A stretch of 64,000 nucleotides of DNA from Candidatus Kaiserbacteria bacterium RIFCSPHIGHO2_01_FULL_58_22 (GCA_001781445.1 MFLB01000034.1:17793-81792); one strand, 5' to 3'. Numbered from the stretch's first letter, positions 777 through 57,178 are shown. Program-made: numbers and translations. Notes: a model not told the origin generated them from the sequence alone.

Positions 777-947
777 GGCGCTATGGCGAAACGCAGAAGT
801 CAGGACATCAGGCGGAAGAAGTCGCGCTCGAAGAAGACCAAGAAGCGCCTTGAGGCGAAGCGGCTGATGCTTGTTGCGAAGGCCGCTGGCAGGAGGGGAA
901 TGCGCTAGCCCGCCGCTTGCGCGCTATCCCCGCGGGCGCATTGCGCG

Positions 948-964
948 ATACCCCCTAGGGGTAT
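948..964. promoter_or_regulatory. GC-tract inverted repeat ATACCCC-cta-GGGGTAT (CsoR/RcnR-type operator-like) in the promoter region of the csoR-like gene
   Basis: Imperfect palindrome read directly from the sequence, 12 bp upstream of the ATG at 976. A near-identical perfect copy is present upstream of the P-type ATPase gene at 8147-8165. Confidence 0.5.
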
Positions 965-975
965 ACAATGGCGAT

Positions 976-1245: not shown

Positions 1246-1253
1246 TAACGAAT

Positions 1254-1610: not shown

Positions 1611-1650
1611 GCGCGAGCGTTCTCGTTTACCATTTTCACCGATTCTACCT

Positions 1651-2079: not shown

Positions 2080-2083
2080 GCCT

Positions 2084-2551: not shown

Positions 2552-2559
2552 ACGGCTAT

Positions 2560-4402: not shown

Positions 4403-4407
4403 GTATC
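4371..4407 (+). repeat. 37-bp perfect direct repeat, left copy (tgcagaacgggggagggagctgtggtgcgtaggtatc)
   Basis: Identical 37-mer at 7659-7695. A further shared gtcgag hexamer lies 7 bp upstream in copy 1 and 5 bp upstream in copy 2. Confidence 0.9.
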
Positions 4408-4455
4408 CTTACATGGCAAGTCGCCAGAGATGAACAATAAGTAACGAAAACAGTC

Positions 4456-5031: not shown

Positions 5032-5051
5032 CGGTCATCAATGCAAAATGT

Positions 5052-5528
5052 ATGAAATACTTCTTTATCGGCATCGGGGCGCTCGTCGCTCTCGCGCTCG
5101 GGGCGACGCTCTTCACCTCGCCTTCGGATCAGAGCGGCCCGAGTGATCCGAACATCCTCGCGGTCGGCGGCATGCACTGGCATCCGAGCATTCGCATCTT
5201 CGTCAAAGGTGAGGAGGTGGAAATACCCCAGAATGTCGGCATCGGGGCAGTGCATCAACCGATGCATACGCACGACGACCTTCCCATTATTCACCTTGAA
5301 TTCCCGGCAATCGTTCGCAAGGACGACATCCGGCTTGGCCGCTTCTTCGAAATATGGGGGCGCAATATGCGCTCGTTCGGGGAGGATATGCTCCCGAGCG
5401 ACGAGCGAGGCAGTACTGAAGCCAGTGGGCTGAATGTGCGCATGACGGTGAACGGCAAAGAAAACATCGAGCACGAGAACTACGTCATGCGCGACAAGGA
5501 CGTAATAGAATTACACTACGACTACTAA
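5052..5528 (+). CDS. secreted hypothetical protein, His-rich (GMHWHP, HQPMHTHDD)
   Basis: 158-aa ORF with a signal-peptide-like N-terminus and intermediate GC. Confidence 0.5.
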   Translation: MKYFFIGIGALVALALGATLFTSPSDQSGPSDPNILAVGGMHWHPSIRIFVKGEEVEIPQNVGIGAVHQPMHTHDDLPIIHLEFPAIVRKDDIRLGRFFEIWGRNMRSFGEDMLPSDERGSTEASGLNVRMTVNGKENIEHENYVMRDKDVIELHYDY

Positions 5529-5600
5529 TGACTGAAAACCTGCGAATACGAGTCTAAGTGAGCTCCGAGTCTGATGCCGAGGGATTGTGGGCGAGAGAGC

Positions 5601-5628
5601 TATAGCGCGTTACCTATAGCGCGTTACC
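5601..5628 (+). promoter_or_regulatory. tandem 14-bp direct repeat (TATAGCGCGTTACC x2) abutting the -35 of the AbiEi-like gene; putative autoregulatory operator
   Basis: Two perfect tandem copies read from the sequence immediately upstream of TTGACT at 5629. Confidence 0.4.
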
Positions 5629-5657
5629 TTGACTAGATATTTCAGATATGATACATT
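5629..5657 (+). promoter_or_regulatory. sigma70-like promoter TTGACT-17-TACATT for the AbiEi/AbiEii-like cassette
   Basis: -35 TTGACT (5629-5634), 17-nt spacer, -10 TACATT (5652-5657), 12 nt before the ATG at 5670. Confidence 0.5.
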
Positions 5658-5669
5658 ATTGTCATAGTT

Positions 5670-6287
5670 ATGAAAAGTAAGAAAAACCTGCTGGAACAGC
5701 TGAATAATTTGCCCCATTTCACCAAAAGCACAGTGTATCAGCTCGGTAGTCAGTTAGGGTTAAAAAACAGTACGCTGAATACCTACATCAGCCGCTTTGT
5801 GAAGCGCAAGGATATTTTGCCGCTGAAAAACGGCCTGTATATCTCTGCCAAATTTTTCGCAGACAATAGAAGCGATATCTCGTACTCTTTCTACCTCGCA
5901 AACATACTCCGTACGCCATCGTACGTAAGTTCGTGGACCGCACTCCAGTACTACAATTTCACTACCGAGGCGATACGCTCCATCACGTCAATTACGTCGA
6001 AAGTCACACGGGATTACGAGACGAAGGCCGGCGCTTTTTCATATCAGTCAATCAACAGAAAACTTTTTTCGGACTACTCGCTCGTCAAAGGAAAATTTGA
6101 TTTCTACATCGCCTCGCCGTCTAAGGCGTTGTTTGACTTGCTGTACTTTAGGACGCACCAGTTCCGAGGCGTCCGGTTTGAAGACATTATAAAAATGGTA
6201 GAAGAATTGCGGATAGATATTGACGAAATGGACGAGGCGGAACGAAGCAATTTCTATGAAAAAGTAAAAGCATATCTCCATGAGTGA
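5670..6287 (+). CDS. AbiEi-like protein (type IV TA antitoxin / transcriptional regulator family; N-terminal wHTH)
   Basis: 205-aa ORF in a ~38% GC segment. Size, N-terminal HTH-like region and the 8-bp overlap with a downstream DUF1814 nucleotidyltransferase gene match AbiEi-AbiEii organisation. Confidence 0.6.
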   Translation: MKSKKNLLEQLNNLPHFTKSTVYQLGSQLGLKNSTLNTYISRFVKRKDILPLKNGLYISAKFFADNRSDISYSFYLANILRTPSYVSSWTALQYYNFTTEAIRSITSITSKVTRDYETKAGAFSYQSINRKLFSDYSLVKGKFDFYIASPSKALFDLLYFRTHQFRGVRFEDIIKMVEELRIDIDEMDEAERSNFYEKVKAYLHE

Positions 6288-7593
6288 TCGTATTATTGCC
6301 ATCTTAAAGAAAGAACTCGATGAGCTTGCCGTCCATGGCGAGTTGAGAGCTGATGTCCGTCAGAACAAGCTCAAGGAAGCACTACAGTACCTTGTTCTTG
6401 ACTTTATCTATCACCACCCAGAATACAGCAAGTGGGTAATGTATGGTGGATCAGCGTTACGCATTATTCACGGGCTTGACCGTATGTCAGTAGATTTAGA
6501 TTTTGAAGTCGCACATGATGTAGACAAAACGTTCTTGGAAGAATTGAGGAAGGAGACTGAAACGCACTTCGCAAACACATATGGAACTACCGGCGATTTT
6601 TTTACACTAAAGATAATCTCGACCAGAAGCTTGCTTCTAAAATTCAACGTCGGAAATGTTCTAGACTTTGGACATACATCTAAGCAGGTGCATGTCAAAA
6701 TTGACCTCAATCATTTTGTTGCCCCAAAGACCGTAACGGAACGTAGGCCCATTAATCACGGTCAGACATCCTTCGTGATTTTGACCTACAACAAGGGCGC
6801 ACTTATGGCGAGTAAAATTGCTGCCATACTTCTGCGCGAAGAGCGGGGTGTTGGAAATAATACATACAATTACAAAGGTCGGGATATTTATGACCTGCTC
6901 TGGTACATGAAAGAAAAAACAACACCGGATTTCGACTACCTAAATGCGAAACTTACGGAAAGGAAAAAGGCAATACCGGATATACGGACACTATTCGACA
7001 CGCTTACGGTAGACATTCTAAATTACGAAAAAATGGACGATTGTCTGAAAGACGATCTCTCATATCTCTTTGAGAATCCGCATCAGTTTGATACATGGTC
7101 ACGGACTTGGCGGGACAGTTATCTGCGATATCTTAACGACTATAAAATTCGTATCATCACCAAACTTGATAAAATTCGTGTAAACCATTGGGTTCTAATA
7201 GGGAAAGCAGATGAGCATGATTTTGAATATTGGTATAAAACAACTGAGAATAGTCTTGGGCGGATTGTATATAGATTACACGAGGACTGCATTATCTATG
7301 GGGAACATGACGTATCTGTCGAAATCGACGAAGAACTAGAAGGTCTAATTGAATTCTCGAGCAACATCCTCTATTCCAGAACAGAAGCGGAAGAAAAGAA
7401 ACTCAAACGGTACGCAACACTCTTTCACAAGAAAACAGAGAACTATTTTAAGAAAACGAATCGCGTCATGCTCGGAGATGTCATTGCTACAAAAGTCATC
7501 CGAATGACAGCTGATAATCTCAATCCAAAGGAGCAGATTTTGCTCAATCGGTCGGCGCTGGAATCCCGTGAACTAGATGACTTCTTGAAGTAA
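6280..7593 (+). CDS. AbiEii/AbiGii-family nucleotidyltransferase (DUF1814) with an ~140-aa C-terminal extension
   Basis: MYGGSALRIIHGLDRMSVDLDFEV matches the GS...[DE]xD NTase core of AbiEii toxins. At 437 aa it is longer than typical members. AT-rich codon usage. Confidence 0.7.
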   Translation: MSDRIIAILKKELDELAVHGELRADVRQNKLKEALQYLVLDFIYHHPEYSKWVMYGGSALRIIHGLDRMSVDLDFEVAHDVDKTFLEELRKETETHFANTYGTTGDFFTLKIISTRSLLLKFNVGNVLDFGHTSKQVHVKIDLNHFVAPKTVTERRPINHGQTSFVILTYNKGALMASKIAAILLREERGVGNNTYNYKGRDIYDLLWYMKEKTTPDFDYLNAKLTERKKAIPDIRTLFDTLTVDILNYEKMDDCLKDDLSYLFENPHQFDTWSRTWRDSYLRYLNDYKIRIITKLDKIRVNHWVLIGKADEHDFEYWYKTTENSLGRIVYRLHEDCIIYGEHDVSVEIDEELEGLIEFSSNILYSRTEAEEKKLKRYATLFHKKTENYFKKTNRVMLGDVIATKVIRMTADNLNPKEQILLNRSALESRELDDFLK

Positions 7594-7658
7594 AGTGAAG
7601 CGTAAATCCATGAAAAAATCGCTGATTGAAGAACTACCAAAAATTGTCGTCGAGTTCG

Positions 7659-7695
7659 TGCAGAACGGGGGAGGGAGCTGTGGTGCGTAGGTATC
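7659..7695 (+). repeat. 37-bp perfect direct repeat, right copy
   Basis: Identical to 4371-4407. Preceded by an AT-rich 26-codon ORF remnant (7610-7690, MKKSLIEELPKIVVEFVQNGGGSCGA) that ends with the same 11 residues as gene 3506-4402. Confidence 0.9.
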
Positions 7696-7723
7696 AGAAA
7701 AGTGATACATTGGAAGCAATCAT

Positions 7724-8047
7724 ATGAAACTCGGCATAATCTTACAATCCAACAAGCCGGAACACGCGTGGAATACGTTCCGCCTTGGCATCGCCGCGCT
7801 TAAAGCCGATCATCACGCGGAGATTTTCCTGATGAGCGAGGGGTCGGAGCTGGACGACATCCCGGACAGCGAAGACTTTGACGTTTCCGCGAAAGTCGCG
7901 GAATTCAAGGAACTGAAAGGCGCGATATACGCGTGCGGCTCGTGTCTGAAAGTGCGCGGCAGGGAAAGCGGGACGTGTCCGGTCTCCACGATGTCCGACT
8001 TGCTCGCCATGGTCGAAAGTTCGGACAAAGTGCTGGTTTTCGGATAG
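7724..8047 (+). CDS. DsrE/DsrF-like family protein
   Basis: 107-aa ORF (MKLGIILQSNKPEHAWNTFRLGIAAL...IYACGSCLKVRG) resembling the DsrE/YchN-like fold. Confidence 0.6.
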   Translation: MKLGIILQSNKPEHAWNTFRLGIAALKADHHAEIFLMSEGSELDDIPDSEDFDVSAKVAEFKELKGAIYACGSCLKVRGRESGTCPVSTMSDLLAMVESSDKVLVFG

Positions 8048-8139
8048 TCGCACGAGTGATGTTCGACCCGCGAGGCCGAACGCACCCCGTGAAATAGGGA
8101 TAAGCGCGGTCGCATGACCGGATATGCGCGGCACGGCGA

Positions 8140-8167
8140 TTGACAGGATACCCCCTGGGGGTATCAT
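8140..8167 (+). promoter_or_regulatory. promoter TTGACA-16-TATCAT with an embedded perfect 19-bp palindrome GATACCCCC-T-GGGGGTATC (8147-8165; CsoR/RcnR-type operator)
   Basis: Read directly from the sequence. The palindrome fills the spacer. The ATG of the ATPase gene is at 8174, which would give a leaderless or near-leaderless transcript. Confidence 0.6.
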
Positions 8168-8173
8168 GGAAAT

Positions 8174-10345
8174 ATGAATCCGGGCACTCCCCATAGCGGC
8201 GAGCCGATGGACTGTTGTCACTCGGAAGCAGAGTCTGCCGCGTCGCAAAAAACGAGCGGTGGCGTTTCGTACGCGTGCCCCATGCATCCGGAGGTCATTC
8301 GTGAAAAGCCGGGGATGTGCCCGGAGTGCGGGATGGCACTGCTTCCGCAGAAGCACGAAACCCGAAGCACGAGGCCCGAAACCGGGAGAAGCGCTGACGA
8401 CAGGCACGAGGGACATAAAACGTCCTCGTTCCTGAAAAAGTTCTGGGTTGTCTCGGTCCTGACGGTGCCCATCGTCGCGTATTCCGATTTGCCGGAGCTT
8501 TTCTTCGGTTGGACGGCGCCGGCATTCCCGGGTTCCGAATATCTTCAGCTTGTACTCGGGTCCTTTGTTTTCTTTTACGGCGGGCTCGTGTTCCTGCGAG
8601 GCGCTGTGAGCGAACTTCGCGCGCGGCTCCCCGGAATGATGACGCTTATCGGGCTCGCGATAAGCGCCGCATACATATGGAGCGCGTACGCGGTCTTCGC
8701 GGGCGAAGAGCCGTTGTTCTGGGAGCTCGCGACCTTGATCGGCGTGATGCTTCTCGGTCACTGGGTCGAGATGCGCGCGGTGCGAAGCGCGAAGGGCGCA
8801 CTGCGCGAGCTTGCGAAGCTTCTCCCCGACAGCGTGGAAGTAGTGCGCGACGGCACGACGCGAACGGTGTCGCTTGCGGAGCTTCTAGAAGGCGACGTCG
8901 CTCTCGTGCGGCCGGGCGGGAAGATCCCGGCGGACGGCGTTGTGGGTGGGGGGGAGTCAGACGTGGACGAATCGCTCGTGACGGGCGAGTCGCGCCCGGT
9001 CGCAAAGCGCGCGGGTTCGGAAGTCATCGGCGGCTCGGTCAACGGCGACGGCGCGCTCCGCATCCGCATCGCAAAAGTCGGCGAGCGCACCTTTCTCGCG
9101 GGCGTCGTGCGCCTCGTTGCCGAAGCCGAGGCCTCGAAATCGCGCCTCCAGCTTCTCTCCGATCGCGCGGCGTTTTATCTCACCGTTCTCGCCGTCGGCG
9201 CGGGAGCCATCACGTTTGTCGCGTGGCTCGGCGTCGGAGAGAGCGTCGGCTTCTCGGTGGAGCGGCTCGTTGCCGTTCTTATCATCGCGTGTCCTCACGC
9301 GCTCGGCCTCGCGATACCGCTCGTCGCGTCGATTTCAACCACGATGGCCTCGCAACACGGCTTTTTTGTGAAGCGGCGGCTCGCGCTCGAAGCGGCGCGC
9401 AACGTGACAACGGTGCTTTTCGACAAGACGGGCACGCTCACCGAGGGGCGCTTCGGCGTCGTCGAGGTGCTCGGCGGCAATGAAACGCTCGCGCTCGCCG
9501 CCGCGGCCGACGCGAATTCCGAGCACCCCATCGGCCGCGCGATCGTCGCACATGCGAAGGAGAAGGGCGTCGCAATACGGCCCGTGTCGTCGTTCAGAAA
9601 TCTGCGCGGCATGGGCGTGCGGGTCACGCTCGACGCGGCGGAAGTATACGCGGGTTCATCAACGCTACTCGAAGAGCGCGGCGCCTCGGTGCCGCGCGAG
9701 CTCGAGGAAGCGGTGCGGATGCACGAGCGGGAGGGGAAGACCGTCGTTCATGTCATACGGAGAGGGGAGTGGGTGGGCGCTGTGGCGCTCGCAGATATCA
9801 TTCGCAACGGATCGCGCGAGGCCGTCGGCGCGCTCAAAGCGATGGGTCTCAAGGTGGCGATGCTCACGGGTGATGCGGAGGATGTTGCCGCATGGGTCTC
9901 GAAAGAGCTCGGCGTCGAGGAGTATTTCGCGCGCGTGCGCCCGGAGAAGAAAGCAGAGACCGTCAAAAAGCTCCGTCGGCGGGGCGAGCGCGTCGCGATG
10001 GTCGGGGACGGGGTGAACGACGCACCCGCGCTCGCGGAAGCCGATCTCGGCATTGCCGTCGGGGCCGGCACGAACGTCGCCATCGAATCGGCCGGCATCA
10101 TTTTGGTGCGCAACGATCCGCGCGACATCCCGAAGGTCGTCAAGCTCTCCCGGCTCACCTATACGAAGATGCTCCAGAACCTCTTTTGGGCGACGGGCTA
10201 CAATGTGGCGGCGCTCCCTTTGGCCGCGGGCGCGTTATTCGCCTATGGCATCGTCCTTCAGCCCGCCGTCGCCGCCGTCTTTATGTCCGCCTCCACCGTC
10301 ATCGTCGCCGCGAACGCCGCTCTCCTGCGCCACCGCACGCTGTGA
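8174..10345 (+). CDS. heavy-metal (copper) translocating P1B-type ATPase, CPH subtype, with N-terminal CPMHPE...CPECGM heavy-metal-binding domain
   Basis: Contains DKTGTLT, the transmembrane CPH motif (IIACPHALGLAIP), GDGVNDAPAL, and an N-terminal YACPMHPEV...PGMCPECGMAL domain. 723 aa. Confidence 0.9.
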   Translation: MNPGTPHSGEPMDCCHSEAESAASQKTSGGVSYACPMHPEVIREKPGMCPECGMALLPQKHETRSTRPETGRSADDRHEGHKTSSFLKKFWVVSVLTVPIVAYSDLPELFFGWTAPAFPGSEYLQLVLGSFVFFYGGLVFLRGAVSELRARLPGMMTLIGLAISAAYIWSAYAVFAGEEPLFWELATLIGVMLLGHWVEMRAVRSAKGALRELAKLLPDSVEVVRDGTTRTVSLAELLEGDVALVRPGGKIPADGVVGGGESDVDESLVTGESRPVAKRAGSEVIGGSVNGDGALRIRIAKVGERTFLAGVVRLVAEAEASKSRLQLLSDRAAFYLTVLAVGAGAITFVAWLGVGESVGFSVERLVAVLIIACPHALGLAIPLVASISTTMASQHGFFVKRRLALEAARNVTTVLFDKTGTLTEGRFGVVEVLGGNETLALAAAADANSEHPIGRAIVAHAKEKGVAIRPVSSFRNLRGMGVRVTLDAAEVYAGSSTLLEERGASVPRELEEAVRMHEREGKTVVHVIRRGEWVGAVALADIIRNGSREAVGALKAMGLKVAMLTGDAEDVAAWVSKELGVEEYFARVRPEKKAETVKKLRRRGERVAMVGDGVNDAPALAEADLGIAVGAGTNVAIESAGIILVRNDPRDIPKVVKLSRLTYTKMLQNLFWATGYNVAALPLAAGALFAYGIVLQPAVAAVFMSASTVIVAANAALLRHRTL

Positions 10346-16814: not shown

Positions 16815-18086
16815 ATGGAAAATAATCCGTGGGAGAGAGCGCGCGCGCAGATGCATGCGGCGGCATCGCATCTTTCGCTCCCGCCGGCGTTCATCGAACG
16901 CATGGAAAAGCCGGATCACGTTATCGAGGTCTCCATGCATGTGCCGATGGACGACGGGCGCACGGAGGTTTTTCACGGCTATCGCGTCCAGCACAACAAC
17001 CTCCGCGGCCCCTACAAAGGCGGTCTTCGATATCATCCGAAAGTAGACATGGACGAGGTAAAGGCGCTCGCGTTCTGGATGACCGTGAAAAACGCCGTCA
17101 TCGATGTCCCGTTTGGCGGCGGGAAGGGAGGCATTACGGTCGACCCGAAGAAGCTCTCGGAGGGCGAGCTTGAGCGCCTGACGCGCGCATTCGCGCGGGA
17201 GCTCGCGCCGTACATCGGCCCGGAGATAGACGTGCCCGCGCCCGACGTGAACACCACGCCGAAGATCATGTCGTGGATCCGCGACGAATACGGCAAGGCG
17301 GTTGGCAAGGATACGCCAGCGGTCGTTACTGGAAAGCCTGTCGGCGCGGGCGGCTCGGAAGGAAGAACGGAAGCGACGGGCCTCGGCGGTTTTTACGCGC
17401 TCATGGAGATCGTGCGGCTTTCGGGGAGAGGACACAGCGGCTTGAAGGCCGCGATACAGGGTTTCGGCAACGTGGGCAGTTTCCTTGCCGGATACATGAA
17501 GGAGGCGGGGTTTCGCGTCGTCGCGCTTTCCGATTCGAAAGGCGGTCTCTATATCCCGAAGGGCATAGACGATCTGAAGGCGGTCGCGGAGTGCAAAGAG
17601 CGAAGCGGCACGCTCGCCGGATGCTACTGCGTCGGGAGCGTGTGCGATCTTTCCAACATGGAGCTTTTGGGAGGCCGCGATATTTCCCCGAAGGAGGTCT
17701 TGACGCTTCCAGTGGACATCGTCGCGCCTTCGGCCCTCGAAAATGCCATCACGAAAGAGAACGCCGCCGCGATCCAAGCTGGCATTGTTCTCGAAATGGC
17801 CAATGGTCCGACAACGCTCGAAGCCGACGAGATCCTGCGGAAGAAGGGTGCGATGGTCATACCGGATATTCTCGCCAATGCCGGCGGCGTTGCGGTTTCC
17901 TACTTCGAGTGGTATCAGAACATGCACGGCGAGACATGGAAAAAGCAAGATGTGTTCGCTAAGCTCAAGGAGAAGATTGATGCCGCGGCACGTGCCGTCT
18001 TTGCCGCCTCGGAGGAATACTCGGTTTCCCTGCGTGAAGCGGCCTACATCGTGGCGCTCAAGCGCCTCTCCGACGCCGCCTACTGA
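16815..18086 (+). CDS. gdhA: glutamate dehydrogenase
   Basis: DVPFGGGKGGITVDPKK and GFGNVGS motifs. 423 aa. Confidence 0.9.
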   Translation: MENNPWERARAQMHAAASHLSLPPAFIERMEKPDHVIEVSMHVPMDDGRTEVFHGYRVQHNNLRGPYKGGLRYHPKVDMDEVKALAFWMTVKNAVIDVPFGGGKGGITVDPKKLSEGELERLTRAFARELAPYIGPEIDVPAPDVNTTPKIMSWIRDEYGKAVGKDTPAVVTGKPVGAGGSEGRTEATGLGGFYALMEIVRLSGRGHSGLKAAIQGFGNVGSFLAGYMKEAGFRVVALSDSKGGLYIPKGIDDLKAVAECKERSGTLAGCYCVGSVCDLSNMELLGGRDISPKEVLTLPVDIVAPSALENAITKENAAAIQAGIVLEMANGPTTLEADEILRKKGAMVIPDILANAGGVAVSYFEWYQNMHGETWKKQDVFAKLKEKIDAAARAVFAASEEYSVSLREAAYIVALKRLSDAAY

Positions 18087-43149: not shown

Positions 43150-43725
43150 TTATGTATCGGTGCTGACTCCATTTTCAGGGCGTGGTCCGTTCGCCTGTTC
43201 GAACGCGGCGAGTTCGGCGGCGATTGTAGCATACTCGGGCAGTTCTTTCCCGTTCTTGATGCCGAGGTGCGCGAGAAGCTCGATCGCGGGGCGGTAGAGG
43301 TATTCGCGCGCGTCTTCCGGATTCTCCGTGCGTTCGAGGAGGCCGCGCGAGAGCAGGGTGCGCAGGGTCGAGGAAGTGTTGACGCCGCGGATGTAGTCTA
43401 TGCGCGCGCGCGTCGAGGGGCCCAGGTAGAGTACGATGGCGAGGACTTCGAGCCCGGCGTCGCCGATGTCGCGCTCAAGTTCGCGTTTTTGGGCCAGCCG
43501 CACGGCTTCGCTCGTCTCCTTCGAGATCGCGAGGCTTGCGGCCGTATCCGTCCGCACGAGCGCGACGCCGCTCCCCTCCAGGCGCTCCGAGAGCGCGTCG
43601 AGCGCCGCCCCGAGCTCTTCTTCTTTGCATTCGAGGAGCAAAGCGAGTTTTTTATGCGTCAGTTCCCCTCCCTCGCTGAAGAGGAAGGCATGCGCGCGCG
43701 CGGCGATGTCGTTTCGTGCCGGCAT
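43150..43725 (-). CDS. scpB: segregation and condensation protein B
   Basis: LEVLAIVLYLGPSTRARIDYIRGVNTSSTLRTLLSRGLL tandem wHTH. Start at the internal Met (43725) adjacent to the scpA stop. Confidence 0.8.
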   Translation of the reverse strand: MPARNDIAARAHAFLFSEGGELTHKKLALLLECKEEELGAALDALSERLEGSGVALVRTDTAASLAISKETSEAVRLAQKRELERDIGDAGLEVLAIVLYLGPSTRARIDYIRGVNTSSTLRTLLSRGLLERTENPEDAREYLYRPAIELLAHLGIKNGKELPEYATIAAELAAFEQANGPRPENGVSTDT

Positions 43726-43726
43726 A

Positions 43727-44446
43727 TTATCCGAATCGCGGAACGCCCGCATGCTCTGCTTCGAGGAAGATATCGGCAAAGAGCTTGTCCTGCGTCGCCG
43801 AAAGCGAGCCGGAGCGCACGAGTTCGAGCGTCGCAAGGAAGTAGACGATGGTTTCGTGCTTGTCGCGCGCGCGCGTGAGTTCCGAGAACCGGGCCTTGAA
43901 GGCGGAAGAAAGGCGGGCTTTCAGGCTCCGTATCACGTCTTCGAGCGCGAGGACCGGCGCGACGGCCGCTTTCGCGAGCGCCTCGGGCTTCGGCAGGATG
44001 CTCGCGAGCCGCCGGATTACGGCCGATAGCGCGTCTGCAGAAACCTCCGCGGGCGCAAAGACGGGCGCCCGCTCCGGCACGCGTTTCGCGAGAATGAGCG
44101 GCTCTCTCCCCCACTCCCGCCGCAGAGCGCGCGCGGCTTTGCGGATGAGAGCGTAGCGCGCAAGCCGCCGCTCGAGCTCTTGCACGCTCTCGCGCTCGTC
44201 GTCGGAAAGAGTGAGCGTGGGAAGCAGAGTGCGCGATTTTATGAGGAGGAGCGTCGAGGCGACGAGAATGAACTGCGCCGTCTCGCCGAGCGGAAGCCCC
44301 GGTAATTTTTCAACGTATGCAAGATATGCATCCGTCACCTCTGCGAGACTGACCTCCGATATCGCGAGCTTTCTATCCTCGATCAGATTCAAAAGCGCCT
44401 CCAAAGGCCCCGAAAACGCTTCAGTCTCAACCGAAAATCGCTCCAT
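43727..44446 (-). CDS. scpA: segregation and condensation protein A
   Basis: FSGPLEALLNLIEDRKLAISEVSLAEVTDAYLAY is the kleisin N-domain. 239 aa. Confidence 0.85.
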   Translation of the reverse strand: MERFSVETEAFSGPLEALLNLIEDRKLAISEVSLAEVTDAYLAYVEKLPGLPLGETAQFILVASTLLLIKSRTLLPTLTLSDDERESVQELERRLARYALIRKAARALRREWGREPLILAKRVPERAPVFAPAEVSADALSAVIRRLASILPKPEALAKAAVAPVLALEDVIRSLKARLSSAFKARFSELTRARDKHETIVYFLATLELVRSGSLSATQDKLFADIFLEAEHAGVPRFG

Positions 44447-45240
44447 AATTAGTTAATGGGGATACGTTAATGGGGTTAATGGGGATACGTCCGTTATTTT
44501 GCACAACTTTGTTGCATAATATCATTGCTGTTTCGGTCTTCCGGGCCCTCTCATGGTACCTTCCATATCATACTCCTCAATCATCCATGTGGTCCATGCG
44601 GTCGACCCATACGGCGCTCCTTTTTTAACGGAGGTGCGAATAGATTCCAGCGCTTCCTTGTTGACGGTGTTCACCAGCGAGAGGTAATCGCGGGGTAACG
44701 CAATGGGAAGCGGCGCGAGCAGTTTCTTGTCCTCGTTGTTCCCTCTCCTGCGTCGATACAGACTCGAGTAAGGCCAACGCTCCGCGCGAGTGACGAGGCG
44801 CGCGCGGAGAGGATTCTGCTCCACGTAGTGTATCACGGTGACGAGATGCTGATCTTCTTGTATCGGAAAAGACTTGTACGACCCCTGGTAGAGGTGGCCG
44901 CCGCCGACGGTTTTGGTGCGCACGCGGCGCTGTCGCACGTGCGTCGTCGTGACCCAGCGCATGAATTCGCTCATGTCTCGGTCGCGCTTTGGATGCAGAA
45001 CGAGGTGCCAATGGTTAGGCATGATGCAGTACGCAAGGATGCGCATGTCGATCAGTTCGACACCTTCTTTGAGTAGCGCCTCGAAGTGCCGATAGTCTTT
45101 TTCATCGTGGAAAATCCTTGCGCGCCCGTTCGCGCGGTTGAGCACATGATACGGCATGTTACCGACGGCAACGCGCGCTAGTCGCGGCATGAACAATACT
45201 ATGCCATGAAAAGAGGCGATATATCGGACTTATCCCCATT
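44447..45240 (-). mobile_element. IS200-like element (Y1/HUH transposase) with terminal inverted AATGGGGATA(c/a)GT motifs; left end carries three tandem TTAATGGGG(ATACG) units
   Basis: Left end 44453-44492 (ttaatggggatacg ttaatgggg ttaatggggatacgtcc). Right end ACTTATCCCCATT at 45228-45240. A second, internally deleted copy with the same ends is at 47896-48335. Confidence 0.7.
44522..45190 (-). CDS. Y1 (HUH) transposase, IS200/RAYT-like long form
   Basis: [15 protein letters not shown]...[17 protein letters not shown] (HuH) and a C-terminal WPYSSLY motif. ATG at 45190 (the track uses a TTG two codons upstream). Confidence 0.8.
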
Positions 45241-45977
45241 CTCTCGCCTGTGTGCGTATGCCCGCCAATCTTTTTCACAAAGACCGAGTCGCCCGTTTTC
45301 AAGATGCCGCCGTAGGCACGCACTATTGCCAAGCGGCCGAGGAAATTATCATAGCCGAGATTAAAGGGCTGTAATTGTGCAGGCTTGGTAAGAGCCTCCG
45401 GGCTCGATGCGGCTGGGACATGTTTTAGTATCGTTTCCAAAAGCGGTGTGAGGTCGGTGGACTCATCGGCCAATTGAATCTTGGCGATTCCCTGCCGGCC
45501 GATAGAATAGACGACTGGAAAATCTGCTTGTTCGTCGGAGGCGCCGAGCTCGAGAAAGAGTTCGAGTACCTGCTCTTCCGTGCGCGCAGGGTCGGCCGCC
45601 GGCTTATCTATCTTGTTGATGACAACGATTGGCTTGATGCCGAGCTCGAGCGACTTCTTCAAGACGAAACGCGTCTGTGGCATGGGGCCTTCCTGCGCGT
45701 CCACCACGAGCAGAACTGAATCGATGGAGCGGAGCACGCGTTCGACCTCGCTTCCGAAATCGGCGTGGCCGGGGGTGTCCACGATATTTATCTTCGTATT
45801 CTTATAGTAGACCGCCGCGTTCTTGGAATAGATGGTGATGCCGCGCTCGCGTTCGAGCGCGTTGGAATCCATCGAGACCCCCTCTTCGGCCACACCCATC
45901 TGCCGCAACAGCGCATCGGTCAAAGTAGTCTTGCCGTGGTCCACATGCGCGATAATTGCGATATTACGGATTTCCAT
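45159..45977 (-). pseudogene. typA: truncated translational GTPase TypA/BipA (N-terminal G domain + part of domain II only); 3' part replaced by the IS element
   Basis: [24 protein letters not shown]...NKIDKP is the TypA G domain. The ORF is 272 aa, against ~600 for an intact TypA. Its last ~25 codons run into the IS right end and the transposase start. Confidence 0.7.
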
Positions 45978-46173
45978 ACTGTTTAAAGCAAAGTGCCTCG
46001 TTGCCGAGGCACCGTGGCTCCATTGTGCCTTATTTCGAGGTTTGCGTCAAGAAAAATACTGTGTAGATTGCGGAGGTCAATTAGTTAGTCAGTTGGTGAA
46101 TAACGGCTCAGCGTAACAAGTTCAAGTCTTTCTCCGCGGCAGTACATTGGTGCTGCACGAGGCGCGCTCGAAA

Positions 46174-46842
46174 CTACTTTGTGAATTTTAAAGTAGTGAG
46201 AATGGTCTCAAAGTCTTTCACGCAGTTGCTGCTTATCGTCGGACGATTTGCCGAAGTGCTTTTATAGGTAGAATAGGTAGACTTGACTAGCTCGTTGGAA
46301 AGTGAGAGTAAATTGAGCGGGACATCATAAATTCCGTCGGAAAGAATGATGTTGGGGAGACCTAGAAAAACTCCACCGTCACTGTAATTAACATATCTGA
46401 TTGTTTGTGATTTGCCACTCGTCATCACGACCGATTTGTTGCTTTGAGTAAAATGACCGCCCAGACCCACTCCCAGCACAGGTCCTATGTAGCAACCGTT
46501 CTGGGTATCGATCAGTTCAAAGAAATCGTAGCCATCTCGATAAGGACTTTGCGTTACCCATAATTCATTTGACGCCGTGTTCAGAAAAAAATTCGACGGA
46601 TATTTAAACTCTATGCCCCACTTATCACTTCGGTACGTTTTCCAATTTGCCGTTCCTGCCGTTGGAGATGGCGAGGTCGGTTGCGTCGGCAAGGGCTGGA
46701 GAATATCTAAATTATCTTCTGACGAGCTTTGTGAAGGCGGTTGCTGCTGCAGAACAAAGTACGCCCCACCCCCAACTACAATGACGCCCAGTATGATCGC
46801 CAGTAAGATGCCCATTGAGACAACGCCCCTTTGAGTGTTCAT
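46174..46842 (-). CDS. hypothetical secreted/membrane-anchored protein (lower GC, Ser/Thr/Pro-rich linker)
   Basis: 222-aa ORF with an N-terminal TM helix and AT-richer composition than the flanks. Confidence 0.45.
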   Translation of the reverse strand: MNTQRGVVSMGILLAIILGVIVVGGGAYFVLQQQPPSQSSSEDNLDILQPLPTQPTSPSPTAGTANWKTYRSDKWGIEFKYPSNFFLNTASNELWVTQSPYRDGYDFFELIDTQNGCYIGPVLGVGLGGHFTQSNKSVVMTSGKSQTIRYVNYSDGGVFLGLPNIILSDGIYDVPLNLLSLSNELVKSTYSTYKSTSANRPTISSNCVKDFETILTTLKFTK

Positions 46843-46877
46843 GCAACAAACAATACCACATCTATAAAGACGAGTAA

Positions 46878-47624
46878 TTAAAGCTGCGGGTCGATGGCGG
46901 CTTTGAAACTCGCGAGTTCGGCGGCGCCGGGGATGAGGACCTTGCCTGTGATAAAGCCTGGAGTGCCGTTGATGCCGAAGCTCGTGCCTTCCGCACGATC
47001 GGCGTTGAGCTTCTTTTGATACCCCGCTTTGTTCGCCGCGACGTCCGCTTTTACTTTGTCCGCATCCATGCCAGAAATTTTCTTGATGAGGACAAGGATG
47101 CTCGCCTCATCACCGAATCCGCCATGCTCTTCGTCTTGCGACTTATACATAGCCTCGCGCCATTCGAAGTATTTTGCAGGATAGAGAGCCCACACGGCGC
47201 GACCGTAGAGTCCTGCCGTGGTGGAATCGTCGCTGAGGAACTGGTAATCCTTGAACACGATCTTGAGCTTGCCCGTATCTACGTAATCGCGTATCAAGAC
47301 CGGAAGCGCCGGCTGTATGGGGATCTGCGGGTGACCCATCTCTACCGCCTTGCAGTACGGACACTGGTAGTCGGACCAGTACGCGAGCACGACCTTGGCG
47401 TCGGCTTTCCCGATGTAGGGGTCTCCTTCCGTCTTCACATCTTTGATGTCCACGGCGACCGGCTGCGCACTGTCCGCCACTCCCAAGCCGCCGCTCTGCG
47501 AGAGGCCGAGATACAATCCTGCGGCAACGATGAGCGCCGCGATAACGATGGAAGCCGGAATGAAAAGCGTGGAATAATCGCGGGGCGTTTGTGCGGTCGG
47601 TGGCATAGTTGGTCTATTGTACAC
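46878..47624 (-). CDS. DsbA-like thiol:disulfide oxidoreductase (CPYC)
   Basis: WSDYQCPYCKAVE thioredoxin active site and an N-terminal TM anchor. 248 aa. Confidence 0.75.
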   Translation of the reverse strand: MYNRPTMPPTAQTPRDYSTLFIPASIVIAALIVAAGLYLGLSQSGGLGVADSAQPVAVDIKDVKTEGDPYIGKADAKVVLAYWSDYQCPYCKAVEMGHPQIPIQPALPVLIRDYVDTGKLKIVFKDYQFLSDDSTTAGLYGRAVWALYPAKYFEWREAMYKSQDEEHGGFGDEASILVLIKKISGMDADKVKADVAANKAGYQKKLNADRAEGTSFGINGTPGFITGKVLIPGAAELASFKAAIDPQL

Positions 47625-47733
47625 GAATCCGCTGATTGCATCTAATGGAATCAGTGGATTCGCGGGCGAACGAGTACATTCGGGTCTCGGGCCATGCTTT
47701 TTCCAAAACGCTCCCTGTAACCAAAGACTTGTT

Positions 47734-47895
47734 TCACTTCTTCACCCCCTGAAGCACGTTCCAGATATTCGGGTCCTGCCCGCCATCGAGCTTGAAGATC
47801 GAGATACCGCGCACGCCCAGCTTTTTCGCGAGGTCTATCTTCTGCTGTACTGAGACCGCATCCGGCCAATCAATGAGACGGAAATCGAGATGTAG
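47734..47895 (-). pseudogene. C-terminal fragment of a GH18-like (chitinase-family) gene lacking its 5' portion
   Basis: Manual translation gives ...RLIDWPDAVSVQQKIDLAKKLGVRGISIFKLDGGQDPNIWNVLQGVKK*, which resembles GH18 C-termini. It is bounded upstream by the degenerate IS copy. Assignment tentative. Confidence 0.3.
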
Positions 47896-48335
47896 GGATA
47901 TTGGGGTCAGTCCCCATATTATTAATATTCTCGTGGTCTAATATTCCTTCGGCCTTCGGGCTCGCGGAGCGTGTGCGCAAGGTTGTGCCGCCCGACCATC
48001 CGGCTTCGCCACGACTCCCTGCCATATGGTATCCCCTTCCGGATAGATTCGCGAATGTCCGCAAGCTCTTCGGGAGAATCTGGTGTATTGATCCATGTGC
48101 GGTAATTGCGCGGCAAATCGAGTGGTAATTCGGCGAGAAGTTTCTTCTCTTTGAGCGTTCCGTTGATTCTTTGGTATGCGCTACCCCATCGCCATACTTC
48201 AGCCTGCTTCGCGAGTCGGGATAATGGGGATACGTCCAATATTCTTAATAATTATGTGTCATGATGTTTTTCACGGTCATGGAAATACTATGCCATGAAA
48301 AGCGCTGATAAATCAGACTTATCCCCATTTCCCCC
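47896..48335 (-). mobile_element. internally deleted second copy of the IS200-like element (transposase C-terminal 105-aa remnant 47922-48239; conserved 5' flank and ACTTATCCCCATT end at 48318-48330)
   Basis: The remnant ORF is homologous to the C-terminus of the 44522-45190 transposase (WRWGSAY / LPLDLPRNY / IRKGIPYGRESW). The 48283-48330 flank is ~85% identical to 45196-45240. The junction carries AATGGGGATACGTCC. A hairpin ATATTGGGG-tcagt-CCCCATAT lies at 47898-47919. Confidence 0.55.
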
Positions 48336-48341
48336 ATTTCT

Positions 48342-49658
48342 TTATTGCGACAATCGGGTGTCGATGCGGGTCATGTCGCGCGGGAAGGCGCTTGCCTCTT
48401 TCACGTTGGGGAGCTCCAGCATCCGCGCGGTGAAGCGCTCGAGGCCGGTGGAGCAACCGCCGTGCGGCGGGAGGCCGTACTTGAAGGCCTGCAGGTAGAA
48501 GGAGAATTTCTCCGGGTCCAATCCCCTCTCCTTCATGCGCGTGATGAGTGCGTCGTAGTCGTGTATGCGCTGACTGCCGCTGTTTATCTCGAGCCCTCGG
48601 AAGAGGAGGTCGAAACCGCGCGAGTACGGCGCTTCAGAAGGATCCTCGTACGTATAGAAAGCGCGCTTCTTGGTCGGAAACTTTGTGATGAAAACAAAAT
48701 CACTCCCCTTCTCTTTTTTCGCCCACTCACAGATCTCACGCTCATCCTCCGGTTCCATGTCGGGTGCCTCCTTTTTGCCGAGCTGTTGCAACGCTTCCTT
48801 TAGTGTAAGTATCGGGATTTCTGCGGACAGTAAGGGCGCAGTGGTGTTAAAGTGGGCGAACATATCGCTGTGTTCACGCGAGACGTACTCCACGACGTAA
48901 CGGATCGTGGTTTCAAGTTCGCGCATCGGTTCACGCTCGTCTGCTATAAATCCCATCTCGAAGTCCATTTGCGTGAGCTCGGAGAGATGGCGTGTCGTTG
49001 CGCTCTTTTCGGCGCGGAATATTTTGGCGATAGTAAAGACCCGCTCAAAAGGCCCGACCATTATCTGTTTATAAAATTGTGGCGAGGTAGCGAGAAAGGC
49101 TGTGGTGTCGTTGTAGTATTCCACCTTGAACGCCGCGGCGCCGCCTTCGGCGTCGCCGCCGACGAGTGCTGGGGCGATGAACTCGGTAAATCCCTGCTTG
49201 CGCAATGAAGATCGATATGCGCCGAGGATAGACGCCTGCATGGTAAAGATGTCGCGGCTTCGCTTGTTCCTCAAAGTAAGTGGCAGGTGGTCGAAGTGCG
49301 TGTCTATGTTCACTTCCGTGCCGAGCTCGAAGGGCAGTTCCGCCGCTTCCGCAAGCACACGTATCTTTTGCGCGGCGAGCTCGACGCCTCCAAGGGGTCC
49401 TTCGCCCTTCATGCTCTCCGGCCGCGCTTTCACTTCGCCTTCGATCTCCACCACCCATTGCGCCCGCAATCTTTTCGCGGTATCGAGCGCTTCGGCCGCT
49501 TTCGGGGTTACGACCGCCTGCACGATGCCGCTCCTGTCGCGCACATCGAGAAAAATCAACTTGCCGTGATCGCGACGCGTATCCACCCAGCCGGCGATTC
49601 GCACGGTCTTTCCCACGGCCTCCGGCAATTTTTTGTTCAGTGTTCGTTCCATATGCAT
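48342..49658 (-). CDS. aspS: class IIb aminoacyl-tRNA synthetase, archaeal/eukaryal-type AspRS (or AsnRS)
   Basis: N-terminal OB fold, FRAEKSATTRHLSELTQMDFE (motif 2) and GGCSTGLERF (motif 3). 438 aa, the short-type length. Confidence 0.8.
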   Translation of the reverse strand: MHMERTLNKKLPEAVGKTVRIAGWVDTRRDHGKLIFLDVRDRSGIVQAVVTPKAAEALDTAKRLRAQWVVEIEGEVKARPESMKGEGPLGGVELAAQKIRVLAEAAELPFELGTEVNIDTHFDHLPLTLRNKRSRDIFTMQASILGAYRSSLRKQGFTEFIAPALVGGDAEGGAAAFKVEYYNDTTAFLATSPQFYKQIMVGPFERVFTIAKIFRAEKSATTRHLSELTQMDFEMGFIADEREPMRELETTIRYVVEYVSREHSDMFAHFNTTAPLLSAEIPILTLKEALQQLGKKEAPDMEPEDEREICEWAKKEKGSDFVFITKFPTKKRAFYTYEDPSEAPYSRGFDLLFRGLEINSGSQRIHDYDALITRMKERGLDPEKFSFYLQAFKYGLPPHGGCSTGLERFTARMLELPNVKEASAFPRDMTRIDTRLSQ

Positions 49659-50632: not shown

Positions 50633-51049
50633 CTACTTCGACTTGAAAACGGCAAGAAGCTCCTCAATATCTCCCAAGTGCTTCACGAGGTATTCCGCGA
50701 CCTTCGCGTCATCGAGCGTACCGTAGGCGTGCACGAGACGGTTGCGGAACCCATACATGCGCATGAATCTGTCCGCGAGATCGTCCGAAATAATCTTTTC
50801 CCGCGCAAGTAGCGCCGCGATGTTGTCTTGCCCAGTTGCGCGTTTCCCTTTGCTCGCGAGCACGATCTGGCTCGCGTCAAAAATAGACTCGATAGCCGTT
50901 ATAAATCGGTAACATGCCGCGTAATACTCGCGGGGATTCGCGCGCAGATACTCGAGTCCGCCGCTCGCGCGAATGCCTTTCAGATCGGCGAGAGAGAGCT
51001 CGCATTGGGATATCTTCTCTTCGAGCACCGATTTTGCAAATTCGTTCAT
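50633..51049 (-). CDS. hepT: HepT-like (DUF86) RNase toxin
   Basis: Rx4HxY motif RNRLVHAY. 138 aa. 4-bp overlap with the upstream nucleotidyltransferase gene. Confidence 0.75.
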   Translation of the reverse strand: MNEFAKSVLEEKISQCELSLADLKGIRASGGLEYLRANPREYYAACYRFITAIESIFDASQIVLASKGKRATGQDNIAALLAREKIISDDLADRFMRMYGFRNRLVHAYGTLDDAKVAEYLVKHLGDIEELLAVFKSK

Positions 51050-51492
51050 GCAGAAAGATGTTCGTGCAACGCTTCGCGCCCGAGCCGTACGAAATGTTTC
51101 GCATATTCGTATTCGTGCATGGTGCGCAGTTCGAATCTCAATCTGTCGTCGTGTGAGCGCTCATACAGGAGCATACCTGTCGAAGCGACGATCTGCTTTA
51201 GGAGAGGGCTTGCCTCATTCAAGATGGCAACATCCAGCTCTCGACTAGGCACAAGCCCGTGCAAGGTTTCGATGATGTCGGCGGTCGCCCCTATCGGGTC
51301 TTTTGGAGCACGTTCGAAAAGAACGGCAACATCGGCATCGCTGTTTTTGTGTGCGGTGCCGAGCGCAACGGAACCATGCAGGTAGCAAAGGACTACCCCG
51401 GCGTCCCGAAGCGCCGTAGTTTGGTGATCATCGAGCTTAAGCACTGACCTTTCCATTCTGTCAGGATAGCACGGCGGAATGTTCTTTTCCAC
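51046..51492 (-). CDS. mntA: MntA-like minimal nucleotidyltransferase antitoxin
   Basis: GSVALGTAHKNSDADVAVL (GSx9-10DxD). The start may be the internal Met at 51456. Confidence 0.7.
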   Translation of the reverse strand: MEKNIPPCYPDRMERSVLKLDDHQTTALRDAGVVLCYLHGSVALGTAHKNSDADVAVLFERAPKDPIGATADIIETLHGLVPSRELDVAILNEASPLLKQIVASTGMLLYERSHDDRLRFELRTMHEYEYAKHFVRLGREALHEHLSA

Positions 51493-56074: not shown

Positions 56075-57178
56075 CTACAGCCCTTCTTCGCTCCGGAGCT
56101 TTTCGACGAGATCGCGGGCGCCTTTTGAAAGTTTCTTCGGGAATTCTATCTCGATCCGCACGAGAAAGTCTCCCCGCGCTCCCCTGCCGTAGGGCACGCC
56201 CTTGCTCCGGATGCGCAGGGTCTCTCCGTGCGAGACGCCCGCCGGCACCTTCAGCATCTCTTCGCCGTCGAGCGTGTGGAGGCGGTATTCGCCGCCGAGG
56301 AGCGCGTCGGTGAGCTTAATGGGAAGAATGGTCAGGATATTATTTCCCTCGCGCGAAAAATTCACGTCGGGCTTCACGTGGAGCTTCACGTACAGATCGC
56401 CCGGATTGCCGCCGGGCGCCGCTTCGCCACGTCCGGGCATGCGGATCATTTCTCCGTCGGAGACGCCCGCCGGTATGGAAATGCGTATCTCTTCTTCGCG
56501 CTTCGCGACGCCTTCGCCGCGGCATGCTTCGCACGGCGTTTCCGGCGTCTCGCCCTTGCCGCGGCAGTGCGGGCAGACGCGTGTCGAAGTGAAGGTGCCG
56601 AAGAAGGAATTGCGCGTCTCGCGGATGTCACCCTTGCCGTTGCAGGCCATGCAGGCAACGATCTTCGAGCCTTTCTGCGCGCCCGTGCCGCCACAGACCG
56701 TACATGCGGCAACCTTCGCGATGAGAACGCGGCGTTCGGAACCGAAAATAGCCTCGCGGAACGGCAATTCGATGTCTATCGAAATGTCGCGCCCTCTCGC
56801 GCGGCCCCGTGGCGAGCCGCCGAAAAACTCGCCGAACACGTCTCCGAGATCGAACTCGAACGCCTGTCCGCCGCCGAAGCCGAAACCTTGCCCTCCGAAG
56901 GAGGGTCCGCCTCCGGCGGAGAAATTGGAAAAGTCGAAACCGCCGAAGCCGGGGCCCTGCGCCCCGCCGCCCGCGAAGGTGCGGCCGTAGGTGTCGTATT
57001 CGGCGCGTCGCTTCTTGTCGGAGAGCACGGCGTACGCCTCGCTCACCTCCTTGAACTTCTTCTCGTCGCCTCCCTTCTTGTCGGGATGGTACTTGTGCGC
57101 GAGCTTCCTGAACGCGCTCTTGATGTCTTCCTCGCTTGCTCCTTTCTGAACGCCGAGGACCTGGTAGTAGTCTTTCAT
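56075..57178 (-). CDS. dnaJ: molecular chaperone DnaJ
   Basis: J-domain (HPD), G/F-rich region and four CxxCxGxG repeats. Confidence 0.9.

Follow-up and report, generated by a model that had tools for sequence, protein, structure and literature searches.

What is the 3.9-kb block of DNA that separates aspS from scpA in a Candidatus Kaiserbacteria population from Rifle groundwater, and how did it come to lie there? We analysed a 64,000-nucleotide stretch from this candidate phyla radiation (CPR) bacterium, called the window below; positions are those of the window unless another contig, designated by an L number, is named. An earlier note, made from the sequence of the window alone, had described two same-orientation copies of an IS200-like element, one intact (copy 1) and one internally deleted (copy 2), around a lower-GC segment. 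We find that the block is an insertion bounded by terminal inverted repeats (TIRs) of an autonomous and a miniature member of the TIRtron family. We think it fairly likely that 44447–48341 is a composite mobile unit made of TIRtron family members, which was moved by the transposase acting on the outer TIRs.

An insertion between aspS and scpA

In L227 and L228/L229, the nearest lineages with clean loci, the order trpS–aspS–scpA–scpB–dacC–mraY–ftsW–murG–gltX is uninterrupted. ScpA identity to the window is 83% for L227 and 79% for L228/L229, and L227 is about 75% identical at the nucleotide level. The aspS–scpA spacer is 30 nt long in L227 (7971–8000) and 17 nt in L228 (7984–8000). To either side of this spacer L227 and the window are collinear, L227 positions 5689–7970 corresponding to window 50626–48342 and L227 positions 8001–9254 to window 44446–43196. 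Since aspS is followed directly by scpA in L227 and L228, the sequence 44447–48341 in the window is an insertion into this spacer.

The outer boundary on the aspS side is the 5′ TIR of the miniature element (48329), followed by a terminal stutter that ends 3 nt from the aspS stop codon. On the scpA side it is the 3′ TIR of copy 1 (44478/44455), again with stutter, 8 nt from the scpA start codon. The autonomous and miniature units are co-oriented, and outward-facing 5′ and 3′ TIRs bound the insertion. Thus, as in a composite transposon, the passenger is enclosed by two cognate ends in the correct orientation, and the orthologous site in relatives lacks it. The earlier note had compared the locus with a composite-transposon passenger segment, and the empty aspS–scpA sites of L227 and L228 bear this out. 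No target duplication was visible at the junctions examined.

The stretch from the end of aspS to the start of scpA, 4.2 kb, is 99.8–100% identical in 20 independently assembled contigs, which come from independent samples and three assembler styles and include two GenBank metagenome-assembled genomes (MAGs). MFMF01000018.1, from GCA_001783445.1, is 100% identical over this stretch. The same aspS protein and transposase sequences are found on that contig, on many ENA/JGI contigs and on GCA_001004985.1 (LCSD01000010.1, Kaiserbacteria GW2011_GWA2_58_9). The arrangement is therefore no one-off assembly artefact. A chimera, in which different loci were joined through the repeated element, might be suspected, because the element is repeated in some populations with permuted flanks and one contig, L010, is a strain mosaic. 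Against this, the same 4.2-kb structure recurs at 99.8–100% identity in all 20 contigs, across the assembler styles and in both GenBank MAGs, and we regard a chimera as hardly credible.

The empty spacers hold a short C-run motif, TTCCCCG in L227 and CCATTTTCC in L228, which resembles the terminal CCCCATT of the element. These two cases may hint at a target preference. An Rfam scan of 43500–49000 gave nothing relevant, and a generic promoter and terminator scan of the locus was uninformative.

The transposase is a RAYT-like enzyme of the TIRYT class

TIRtrons have been described as RAYT-like genes, the TIRYTs, flanked by long TIRs with the motif GGGGWSAS (Di Nocera et al. 2013, PMC3733652); RAYTs are tyrosine transposases associated with repetitive extragenic palindromic (REP) sequences. 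TIRYTs correspond to TnpA_Y1 subclass 2.1 (Quentin et al. 2018, PMC6006769) and to RAYT Group 1 (Bertels et al. 2017, PMC5581495). Subclass 2.1 proteins have a Y---NP motif, an NH[VYF]H HuH motif, a length of about 238 aa and a helix-turn-helix (HTH)-like C-terminal tail (Bac_DnaA_C/HTH_23/HTH_28) (PMC6006769).

The transposase open reading frame (ORF) of copy 1 is intact, with 222 aa from the ATG at 45190 or 224 aa from a TTG (44522–45196, minus strand). It matches Pfam Y1_Tnp with 64 bits, in agreement with the HUH/Y1 transposase that had been proposed for this copy. In NCBIfam it scores 69.6 bits with REP_Tyr_transpos (REP-associated tyrosine transposase), below the cut-off of 80, and 24.4 bits with the IS200/IS605 model, below the cut-off of 55. 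BLASTP against the published TIRYTs, taken from Additional file 5 of PMC3733652, gives 44% identity over 222 aa with rba2408 (E 9e-68) and 42% full-length identity with gbm2474 (E 3e-63). The only PDB sequence match is Escherichia coli TnpA_REP (4ER8), with 23% identity over 99 aa, and the fold of the window transposase is that of TnpA_REP.

The protein contains NHWH and YVEQNP motifs, the latter with the catalytic Tyr and the class-2 Y---NP signature. In these motifs and in its length of 222 aa, the features compared, the protein agrees with subclass 2.1. Residues H60, H62, Y122 and E124-Q125-N126 are invariant across 50 aligned family sequences. The C-terminal region of about 95 aa is helical in an AlphaFold2 model and ends in GRPK; a Pfam search for HTH domains in the C-terminal domain of 50 family members found no match at E ≤ 1. 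The codons of copy 1 and of the element in L001, a contig of a sister lineage, differ at 17 synonymous and 4 non-synonymous positions, which indicates purifying selection on the transposase gene. Because of its full-length identity to rba2408 and gbm2474, the window transposase is, as judged from its sequence, a TIRYT, that is, a RAYT-like Y1/HUH tyrosine transposase, and the element is a TIRtron and no IS200-type insertion sequence (IS). The label IS200-like has to be given up, since the protein falls in the RAYT/TIRYT class and the element has TIRs and no IS200/IS605 subterminal hairpins.

The ends of the autonomous element

The autonomous element occupies 44478–45240. Its inverted arms lie at 44478–44522 and 45196–45240, so the inverted terminal motifs reported around copy 1 are real. 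The 3′ TIR of copy 1 is also found in L001, in L002 and family-wide. The left end reads GTTAATGGGGATACG TTAATGGGG TTAATGGGGATACGTCC, and the triple tandem noted there is present at 44452–44492. Exact AATGGGGATA occurs five times in the 64-kb window and only at element ends, at 44455, 44478, 45231(−), 48223 and 48320(−). With one mismatch there are 10 matches against 1.57 expected, a number that none of the shuffled sequences reached.

The TIR core in the window is GGGGATA(A/C)GTCC. Its GGGGATAA agrees with the published GGGGWSAS at six of eight positions, and GGGGACAG in L178 agrees fully. The core was absent from 59 kb of clean relative DNA, and in the window it was seen only at the elements. 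The TIR, AATGGGGATA(A/C)GTCC, has no GTAG or GTGG foot, and its self-complementary stretch is only 3 bp. A model in which the ends form hairpins of the IS608 or REP type was rejected: the ends of copy 1 fold like shuffled sequences, and only the miniature element folds, via its TIRs.

Upstream of the transposase ATG, TGGCATAGT is a candidate extended −10 promoter, which the generic promoter scan missed. As read from upstream sequences, a TGGYMTAAT motif is conserved 7–10 nt before the ATG in the Parcubacteria subfamily.

How do the stutters at the ends arise? In L011 (4701–4760), L014 and L017, contigs from three independent samples of the window's own population, the 5′ terminus of copy 1 coincides exactly with a tandem duplication of 9 nt, GAGAATGGG (about window 45236–45244), by which the ORF of the truncated typA gene grows from 272 to 275 aa. 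Stutter is therefore generated at the site itself.

A miniature element beside an older remnant

The earlier note took copy 2 for an internally deleted version of copy 1, with the same right end and 5′ flank at about 85% identity. The likeness of the 5′ end is genuine, with 46 nt (48284–48329) that are 89% identical to the 5′ end of copy 1. Beyond this, the resemblance at the nucleotide level is limited to 48 nt (48218–48265) that are 75% identical to the 3′ end of copy 1. The region consists instead of a complete 107-bp miniature element and, outside it, a remnant of another family member.

In transposase orientation the miniature element begins with a 5′ TIR, AATGGGGATAAGTC, followed by the promoter-like TGGCATAGT and an ATG with a few codons. 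It continues with a family-type 3′ untranslated region (CACATAATT...AATATT) and the 3′ TIR GGACGTATCCCCATT. As single-stranded DNA it forms a TIR-closed hairpin (z about −2). This 107-bp unit is an internal-deletion derivative resembling miniature inverted-repeat transposable elements (MITEs) and REPINs.

The remnant encodes 105 aa, with BLASTP identity to copy 1 of 42% over 88 aa (E 2e-21) and identity of 44–60% to the other family members compared; Pfam and NCBIfam gave no match. It ends in its own degenerate 3′ end, GGGGACTGACCCCAAT (47899–47916). With only 42% identity to copy 1 and an end of its own, the remnant therefore represents the 3′ half of another element, one of greater age.

The cargo is ordinary chromosome

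Between the elements lie 2.65 kb of ordinary chromosome: a GH18 tail, dsbA, a variable hypothetical gene and typA codons 1–245. As had been noticed, typA is cut at the right end of copy 1. The fragment covers TIGR01394 profile positions 1–242 of 594, and tblastx homology to typA of L144, L145 and L146 ends exactly at 45243; the typA′ ORF continues into the element as far as 45159. The GH18-like gene is likewise reduced to its last codons, as had been claimed: by tblastx, 47737–47892 matches the end of the GH18 domain in Pfam-annotated genes of L144 (75.5% over 49 aa) and L145 (54.7% over 53 aa). The tail by itself has no Pfam or NCBIfam match, and its identity rests on tblastx to these relatives. 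Both truncations lie exactly at element ends.

The two genes between them are also as described, a low-GC hypothetical gene and a DsbA-like gene. The former has a GC content of 0.43–0.49, below that of its neighbours, and no Pfam or NCBIfam match. The latter is 58–77% identical in amino acids to the syntenic dsbA of L144.

Where do these genes come from? L144, the closest typA relative, has the order GDH–ABC–ABC2–GH18 (510 aa)–DsbA–X–typA–msrB, and in L145 GH18 is likewise upstream of typA. The slot X, which in the window holds the hypothetical gene, holds an unrelated PG_binding/PKD gene in L144. Since GH18–dsbA–X–typA is syntenic elsewhere in L144, the cargo is a truncated copy of a block native elsewhere, and its lower GC content is explained by the middle gene being a variable slot. 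The passenger is thus host-type chromosomal DNA in truncated form and not foreign low-GC cargo. The native GH18...typA block was not found beside the GDH gene of the window (16815–18086), where an inositol monophosphatase gene and the his operon lie instead.

These findings bear on the second origin that had been offered for the locus, that the block is native here and has lost the remainder of GH18 and typA through IS-mediated deletions or rearrangements at its two sides. Truncations exactly at element ends would suit such deletions, and there is another junction between an element and a truncated gene, the dnaJ tail in L001 and L010. However, trpS–aspS–scpA–scpB–dacC–mraY runs uninterrupted through the short spacers of L227 and L228/L229, and GH18–dsbA–X–typA lies in a different neighbourhood in L144. 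Deletion in place is therefore very improbable, and the insertion of a composite unit remains our preferred reading. The positions of the features are given in Table 1.

Table 1. Features of the insertion between aspS and scpA, in window coordinates.
Feature	Position	Strand	Sequence or basis
Composite insertion, whole (3,895 bp)	44447–48341	minus	aspS–scpA spacer; collinearity with L227, empty spacers in L227/L228
3′ terminal stutter (tandem partial copies)	44452–44477	minus	GTTAATGGGGATACG then TTAATGGGG; 8 nt from scpA start codon (44446)
3′ TIR, autonomous element	44478–44500	minus	AATGGGGATACGTCCGTTATTTT on plus strand; ...AAAATAACGGACGTATCCCCATT in transposase orientation
TIRYT gene, 222 aa	44522–45190	minus	Pfam Y1_Tnp, NCBIfam, homology to published TIRYTs
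Candidate extended −10 promoter element	45197–45205	minus	TGGCATAGT, 6–7 nt upstream of ATG
5′ TIR, autonomous element	45221–45240	minus	AATGGGGATAAGTCCGATAT in transposase orientation; adjoins last native typA codon
typA/bipA fragment, native codons 1–245 of ~600	45243–45977	minus	TIGR01394; tblastx
Hypothetical gene, 222 aa, N-terminal hydrophobic segment	46174–46842	minus	Variable slot of GH18–dsbA–X–typA block
DsbA-like thioredoxin-fold gene	46878–47624	minus	Pfam Thioredoxin_4 75.7 bits, DSBA 41.5 bits
GH18 tail, last ~52 codons + stop; 5′ part missing	47734–47892	minus	tblastx to relatives
3′ remnant of second, diverged TIRYT element	47896–48222	minus	~ residues 132–218 of copy 1
Miniature (MITE/REPIN-like) element, 107 bp	48223–48329	minus	Repeats D2 (89%), D3 (75%), I6; both cognate TIRs
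Outer stutter + 3 nt spacer	48330–48341	minus	AAATGGGGG; directly after aspS stop codon (48342–48344)

In L144, L145 and L146, which are long contigs, typA itself is split into two ORFs at differing positions (6001–7785, 6001–7814 and 6001–7795, respectively), by an in-frame TAG in the conserved RERL*RELE stretch in L144 and by frameshifts in L145 and L146. The 120 best database matches to the N-terminus of the window TypA are all ≤430 aa, against about 600 aa for full-length TypA. This may reflect repeated decay of the gene within the clade, or else a systematic fault in how it is assembled or called. L146, an unrelated Parcubacteria contig, shows a second association of typA with a Y1 gene: directly upstream of typA, a 243-aa ORF (5127–5858) has a weak Y1_Tnp match (32.5 bits, C-terminal domain part only).

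The family and its signs of mobility

The transposase family has more than 4,300 homologues, nearly all of 220–225 aa and 60–70% identical in Parcubacteria. In 59 non-redundant metagenome loci, the flanks of the gene contain an inverted repeat with a median length of 25 nt, whereas shuffled controls gave a median of 9 and a maximum of 13 nt. The 5′ TIR starts 50–60 nt before the ATG across the family loci. A TIRtron here is about 770 bp long, with the TIRYT gene between TIRs of about 20 bp.

The TIR core GGGGATAAGTCC is widely shared in the family. The inner part of the TIR varies by lineage and is the same at both ends, for example GGGGACAGGGACAATTG with CAATTGTCCCTGTCCCC in L178, GGGGAGGCGTCCG in L156 and GGGACGCTCACG in L186. 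This covariation shows that both ends are read as a matched pair. The suggestion that the repeated unit is recognised by the transposase is thereby strengthened, since AATGGGGATA(A/C)G fits both the family-wide conservation and the end-to-end covariation. Many loci carry extra copies of the outermost 7–9 nt (AAATGGGG and variants) in tandem beyond one TIR or both, and in at least 14 of 54 loci this stutter is pronounced.

TIR pairs without a gene, 71–187 nt long, were found at eight loci; miniature-like pairs beyond the window occur in L032, L068, L113, L170, L171, L178 and L221. A scan of 596 Gb of contigs with the 15-mer AATGGGGATAMGTCC was dominated by chance matches, the genuine ones among the matches listed being L032, L053, L068/L103 and L113.

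Two of these contigs show further arrangements. L178 carries two TIRYT genes (170–841 and 2501–3178, about 61–62% identical to that of the window), each with its own distinct matched TIR pair, and a 131-nt miniature element (3618–3748), all three units within 3.6 kb. In L032 (Nomurabacteria), a TIR at 3104, an inverted TIR at 4015–4029 and a third TIR at 3911 surround an opposite-strand 166-aa ORF that has no Pfam match and is not a transposase; 3104–4029 may be a TIR-bounded unit with different cargo.

Is the gene mobile at all? RAYT Group 1 or subclass 2.1 proteins have been published as low-copy, without IS features and housekeeping-like (PMC5581495, PMC6006769). A domesticated, immobile housekeeping gene of this type, with REP-like repeats of regulatory or structural function and an arrangement produced by unrelated rearrangements, would also accord with the purifying selection on the gene and with the finding of the exact protein in a single context in this species. 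However, one family member is 100% identical over 767–774 nt in six contigs of another population, with four upstream and four downstream flank types, that is, in at least four contexts. Copy 1 and the L001 element, which has other neighbours, namely aspS and a truncated dnaJ tail, are 96.6% identical, while the flanking housekeeping DNA is 82–92% identical. Furthermore, the lack of the TIR motif in the 59 kb of clean relative DNA argues against a general genomic REP, and the 3.9-kb insertion is bounded precisely by TIRs. We consider domestication quite unlikely, and a mobile element in better accord with these observations.

How the insertion may have formed

The proposed history of the composite unit begins at a donor locus with the native order GH18–dsbA–X–typA. 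An old element would have inserted into GH18, with the miniature element nested within it, and the autonomous element would have inserted into typA. The transposase would then have used the 5′ TIR of the miniature element and the 3′ TIR of the autonomous element as ends, so that all DNA between them moved as one unit into the 17–30 bp aspS–scpA spacer. From the fold class, the chemistry would be cleavage by the HUH/Tyr active site and strand transfer on single-stranded DNA. Such a reaction would be strand-specific and would not be expected to produce a target duplication. The ends are co-oriented as a strand-specific HUH mechanism would need. Mobilisation in a single step by the transposase, and its chemistry, are what we infer.

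Several points weigh against this account. The donor locus, with the 5′ part of GH18 and the 3′ part of typA, was not found in a search that, within this genome, covered the window. The 5′ end of the miniature element is only 89% identical to that of copy 1, so the two are no recent siblings. The ends of copy 1 fold no better than shuffles (z −0.3 to −1.5), and strong hairpins are not predicted. Within the window's species the exact transposase protein was seen in one genomic context only, so that current activity in the window's genome is no more than possible, and we found no experimental transposition of any TIRYT in the literature searched. Finally, a one-step event and recombination routes are indistinguishable by sequence alone.

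What could recombination have done? A circle with one element and GH18′–dsbA–X–typA′ might have been excised at the native locus, where two elements recombined with each other, and integrated, by RecA-type recombination, into an element already resident in the spacer. In L001, from the nearest sister lineage, there is an element just downstream of aspS, which suggests that the site was occupied before the split. L001 also looks like a circular permutation of window 56270–48337 joined via the element, as a circle or tandem repeat would, and in another population flanks are shuffled around identical copies. On the other hand, the miniature element and the remnant share little with copy 1 (46 nt at 89% and 42% protein identity), which leaves scant substrate for recombination today. 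This route also takes several steps instead of one, and the pattern in L001 may be an assembler path through a repeat. We regard recombination as possible but doubtful, and favour transposition of the composite unit.

The contig L001 deserves a closer description. Over 1–7258, the 3′ end of its element is fused to the last ~65 dnaJ codons (...CCCCATTACCCTGTATCC followed by GACGGCGAAGAG, equivalent to window 56273). The order aspS–element–dnaJ tail–...–trpS is a circular permutation of the dnaJ...aspS segment of the window (56270–48337). It could represent a second composite, a circle, a tandem repeat or an assembler path through the repeat.

Two candidates tried in this connection did not hold up. 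L010 (1–400), taken as independent confirmation of the dnaJ junction, was weakened when its first ~960 nt proved to be L001-type (97.7%), the contig being a strain mosaic. In L009 (2540–2580; GCA_001004985.1; window 56370–56510), a deletion of 143 nt, seen in the 2015 MAG alone, breaks dnaJ into two ORFs of 231 and 60 aa. We rejected its interpretation as an excision footprint, since the assembly is old and the element junction seen in L001 is about 100 nt away; an artefact of assembly or strain is the more probable cause.

Elsewhere in the window, a HepT-like/nucleotidyltransferase (MNT) pair of toxin–antitoxin type lies directly upstream of trpS (50633–51492). It is absent in L227 and L228, and L001 has PemK-type genes instead, so that this is a variable slot. 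In the composition profile a low-GC island is seen at 5000–8500, with 0.44–0.47 against about 0.60–0.64 around it.

Implications

The HUH enzymes of the RAYT/TIRYT class are usually called single-copy and domesticated, with no function assigned. The locus provides natural, comparative evidence for mobility of the TIRtron class, with a mechanism that we infer. In our judgement, the balance is about even for the wider proposition that TIRYT-class transposases in Parcubacteria drive autonomous, IS-like transposition of TIR-bounded units, including miniatures and kilobase-scale host DNA, that the stutter is a by-product of repeated terminal nicking and rejoining, and that this locus is the first natural before-and-after example. 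The locus has the ingredients for a transposition or cleavage assay: its ends are defined, a cognate miniature is present, relatives have empty sites and the passenger is host DNA.

TIRtrons can reshuffle or truncate core genes in the very small genomes of CPR bacteria, typA and GH18 here and dnaJ in the sister lineage. Through such elements scpAB and the cell-wall operon can also come to lie directly behind a transposase gene that probably has its own promoter. In the window, these genes now follow the transposase gene instead of aspS and are probably transcribed by read-through from the element.

This is a useful case of a described type of element and no new category; the TIRtron kind is already known, though rarely mentioned in the literature searched. 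In that literature we found no paper linking RAYTs or TIRYTs with CPR bacteria and no description of a composite of this kind for elements of the RAYT/TIRYT class. As far as could be found, the new points are the subfamily in CPR bacteria with its GGGGATAAGTCC TIR, the support for IS-like mobility from comparison between lineages, the carriage of host genes by a composite and the polymorphism of the terminal stutter.

Comparison with known systems

The locus resembles DDE composite transposons and MITE-flanked units in that cognate ends of separate copies bracket a passenger at a new site, and, as in DDE composite transposons, the inner ends coincide with the points at which the passenger genes are cut. 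It differs from them in its enzyme, a tyrosine HUH nuclease, in having a miniature as one flank and in showing no target duplication.

With the IS200/IS605 group (IS608, ISDra2, IS200) the element shares the HUH/Y1 core, the lack of a visible target-site duplication and co-oriented ends, which are compatible with a strand-specific single-stranded-DNA mechanism. However, the window protein has 222 aa against ~130–150 and Y---NP in place of Y---Q, and its IS200 score is under the cut-off. The element has TIRs rather than distinct left and right subterminal hairpins, and there is no tnpB partner.

REPtrons (TnpA_REP/RAYT, E. coli 4ER8, Pseudomonas REPINs) likewise have a gene between inverted cognate repeats, with co-evolution of enzyme and repeat in each lineage, and the miniature doublets of the window family, about 100 bp long, fold into hairpins as REPINs do. 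In contrast to REPs, the window repeats are not individually palindromic and have no GT[AG]G foot. The copy number of the window family is a handful rather than tens to hundreds, the gene moves with its repeats, and similarity to TnpA_REP is limited to 23% over 99 aa.

The published TIRtrons and TIRYTs differ from the present elements in some respects. The window host is a CPR bacterium (Kaiserbacteria), the core GGGGATAA matches six of the eight positions of GGGGWSAS and no HTH signal is found with Pfam. Unlike what has been published, there are here identical multi-copy elements, miniatures, a composite with host genes and tandemly stuttered termini. What the two have in common is full-length homology, including the C-terminal domain ending in GRPxK, the class-2 Y---NP signature, long TIRs at a fixed distance that start with GGGG, and TIR dimers elsewhere in the genome.

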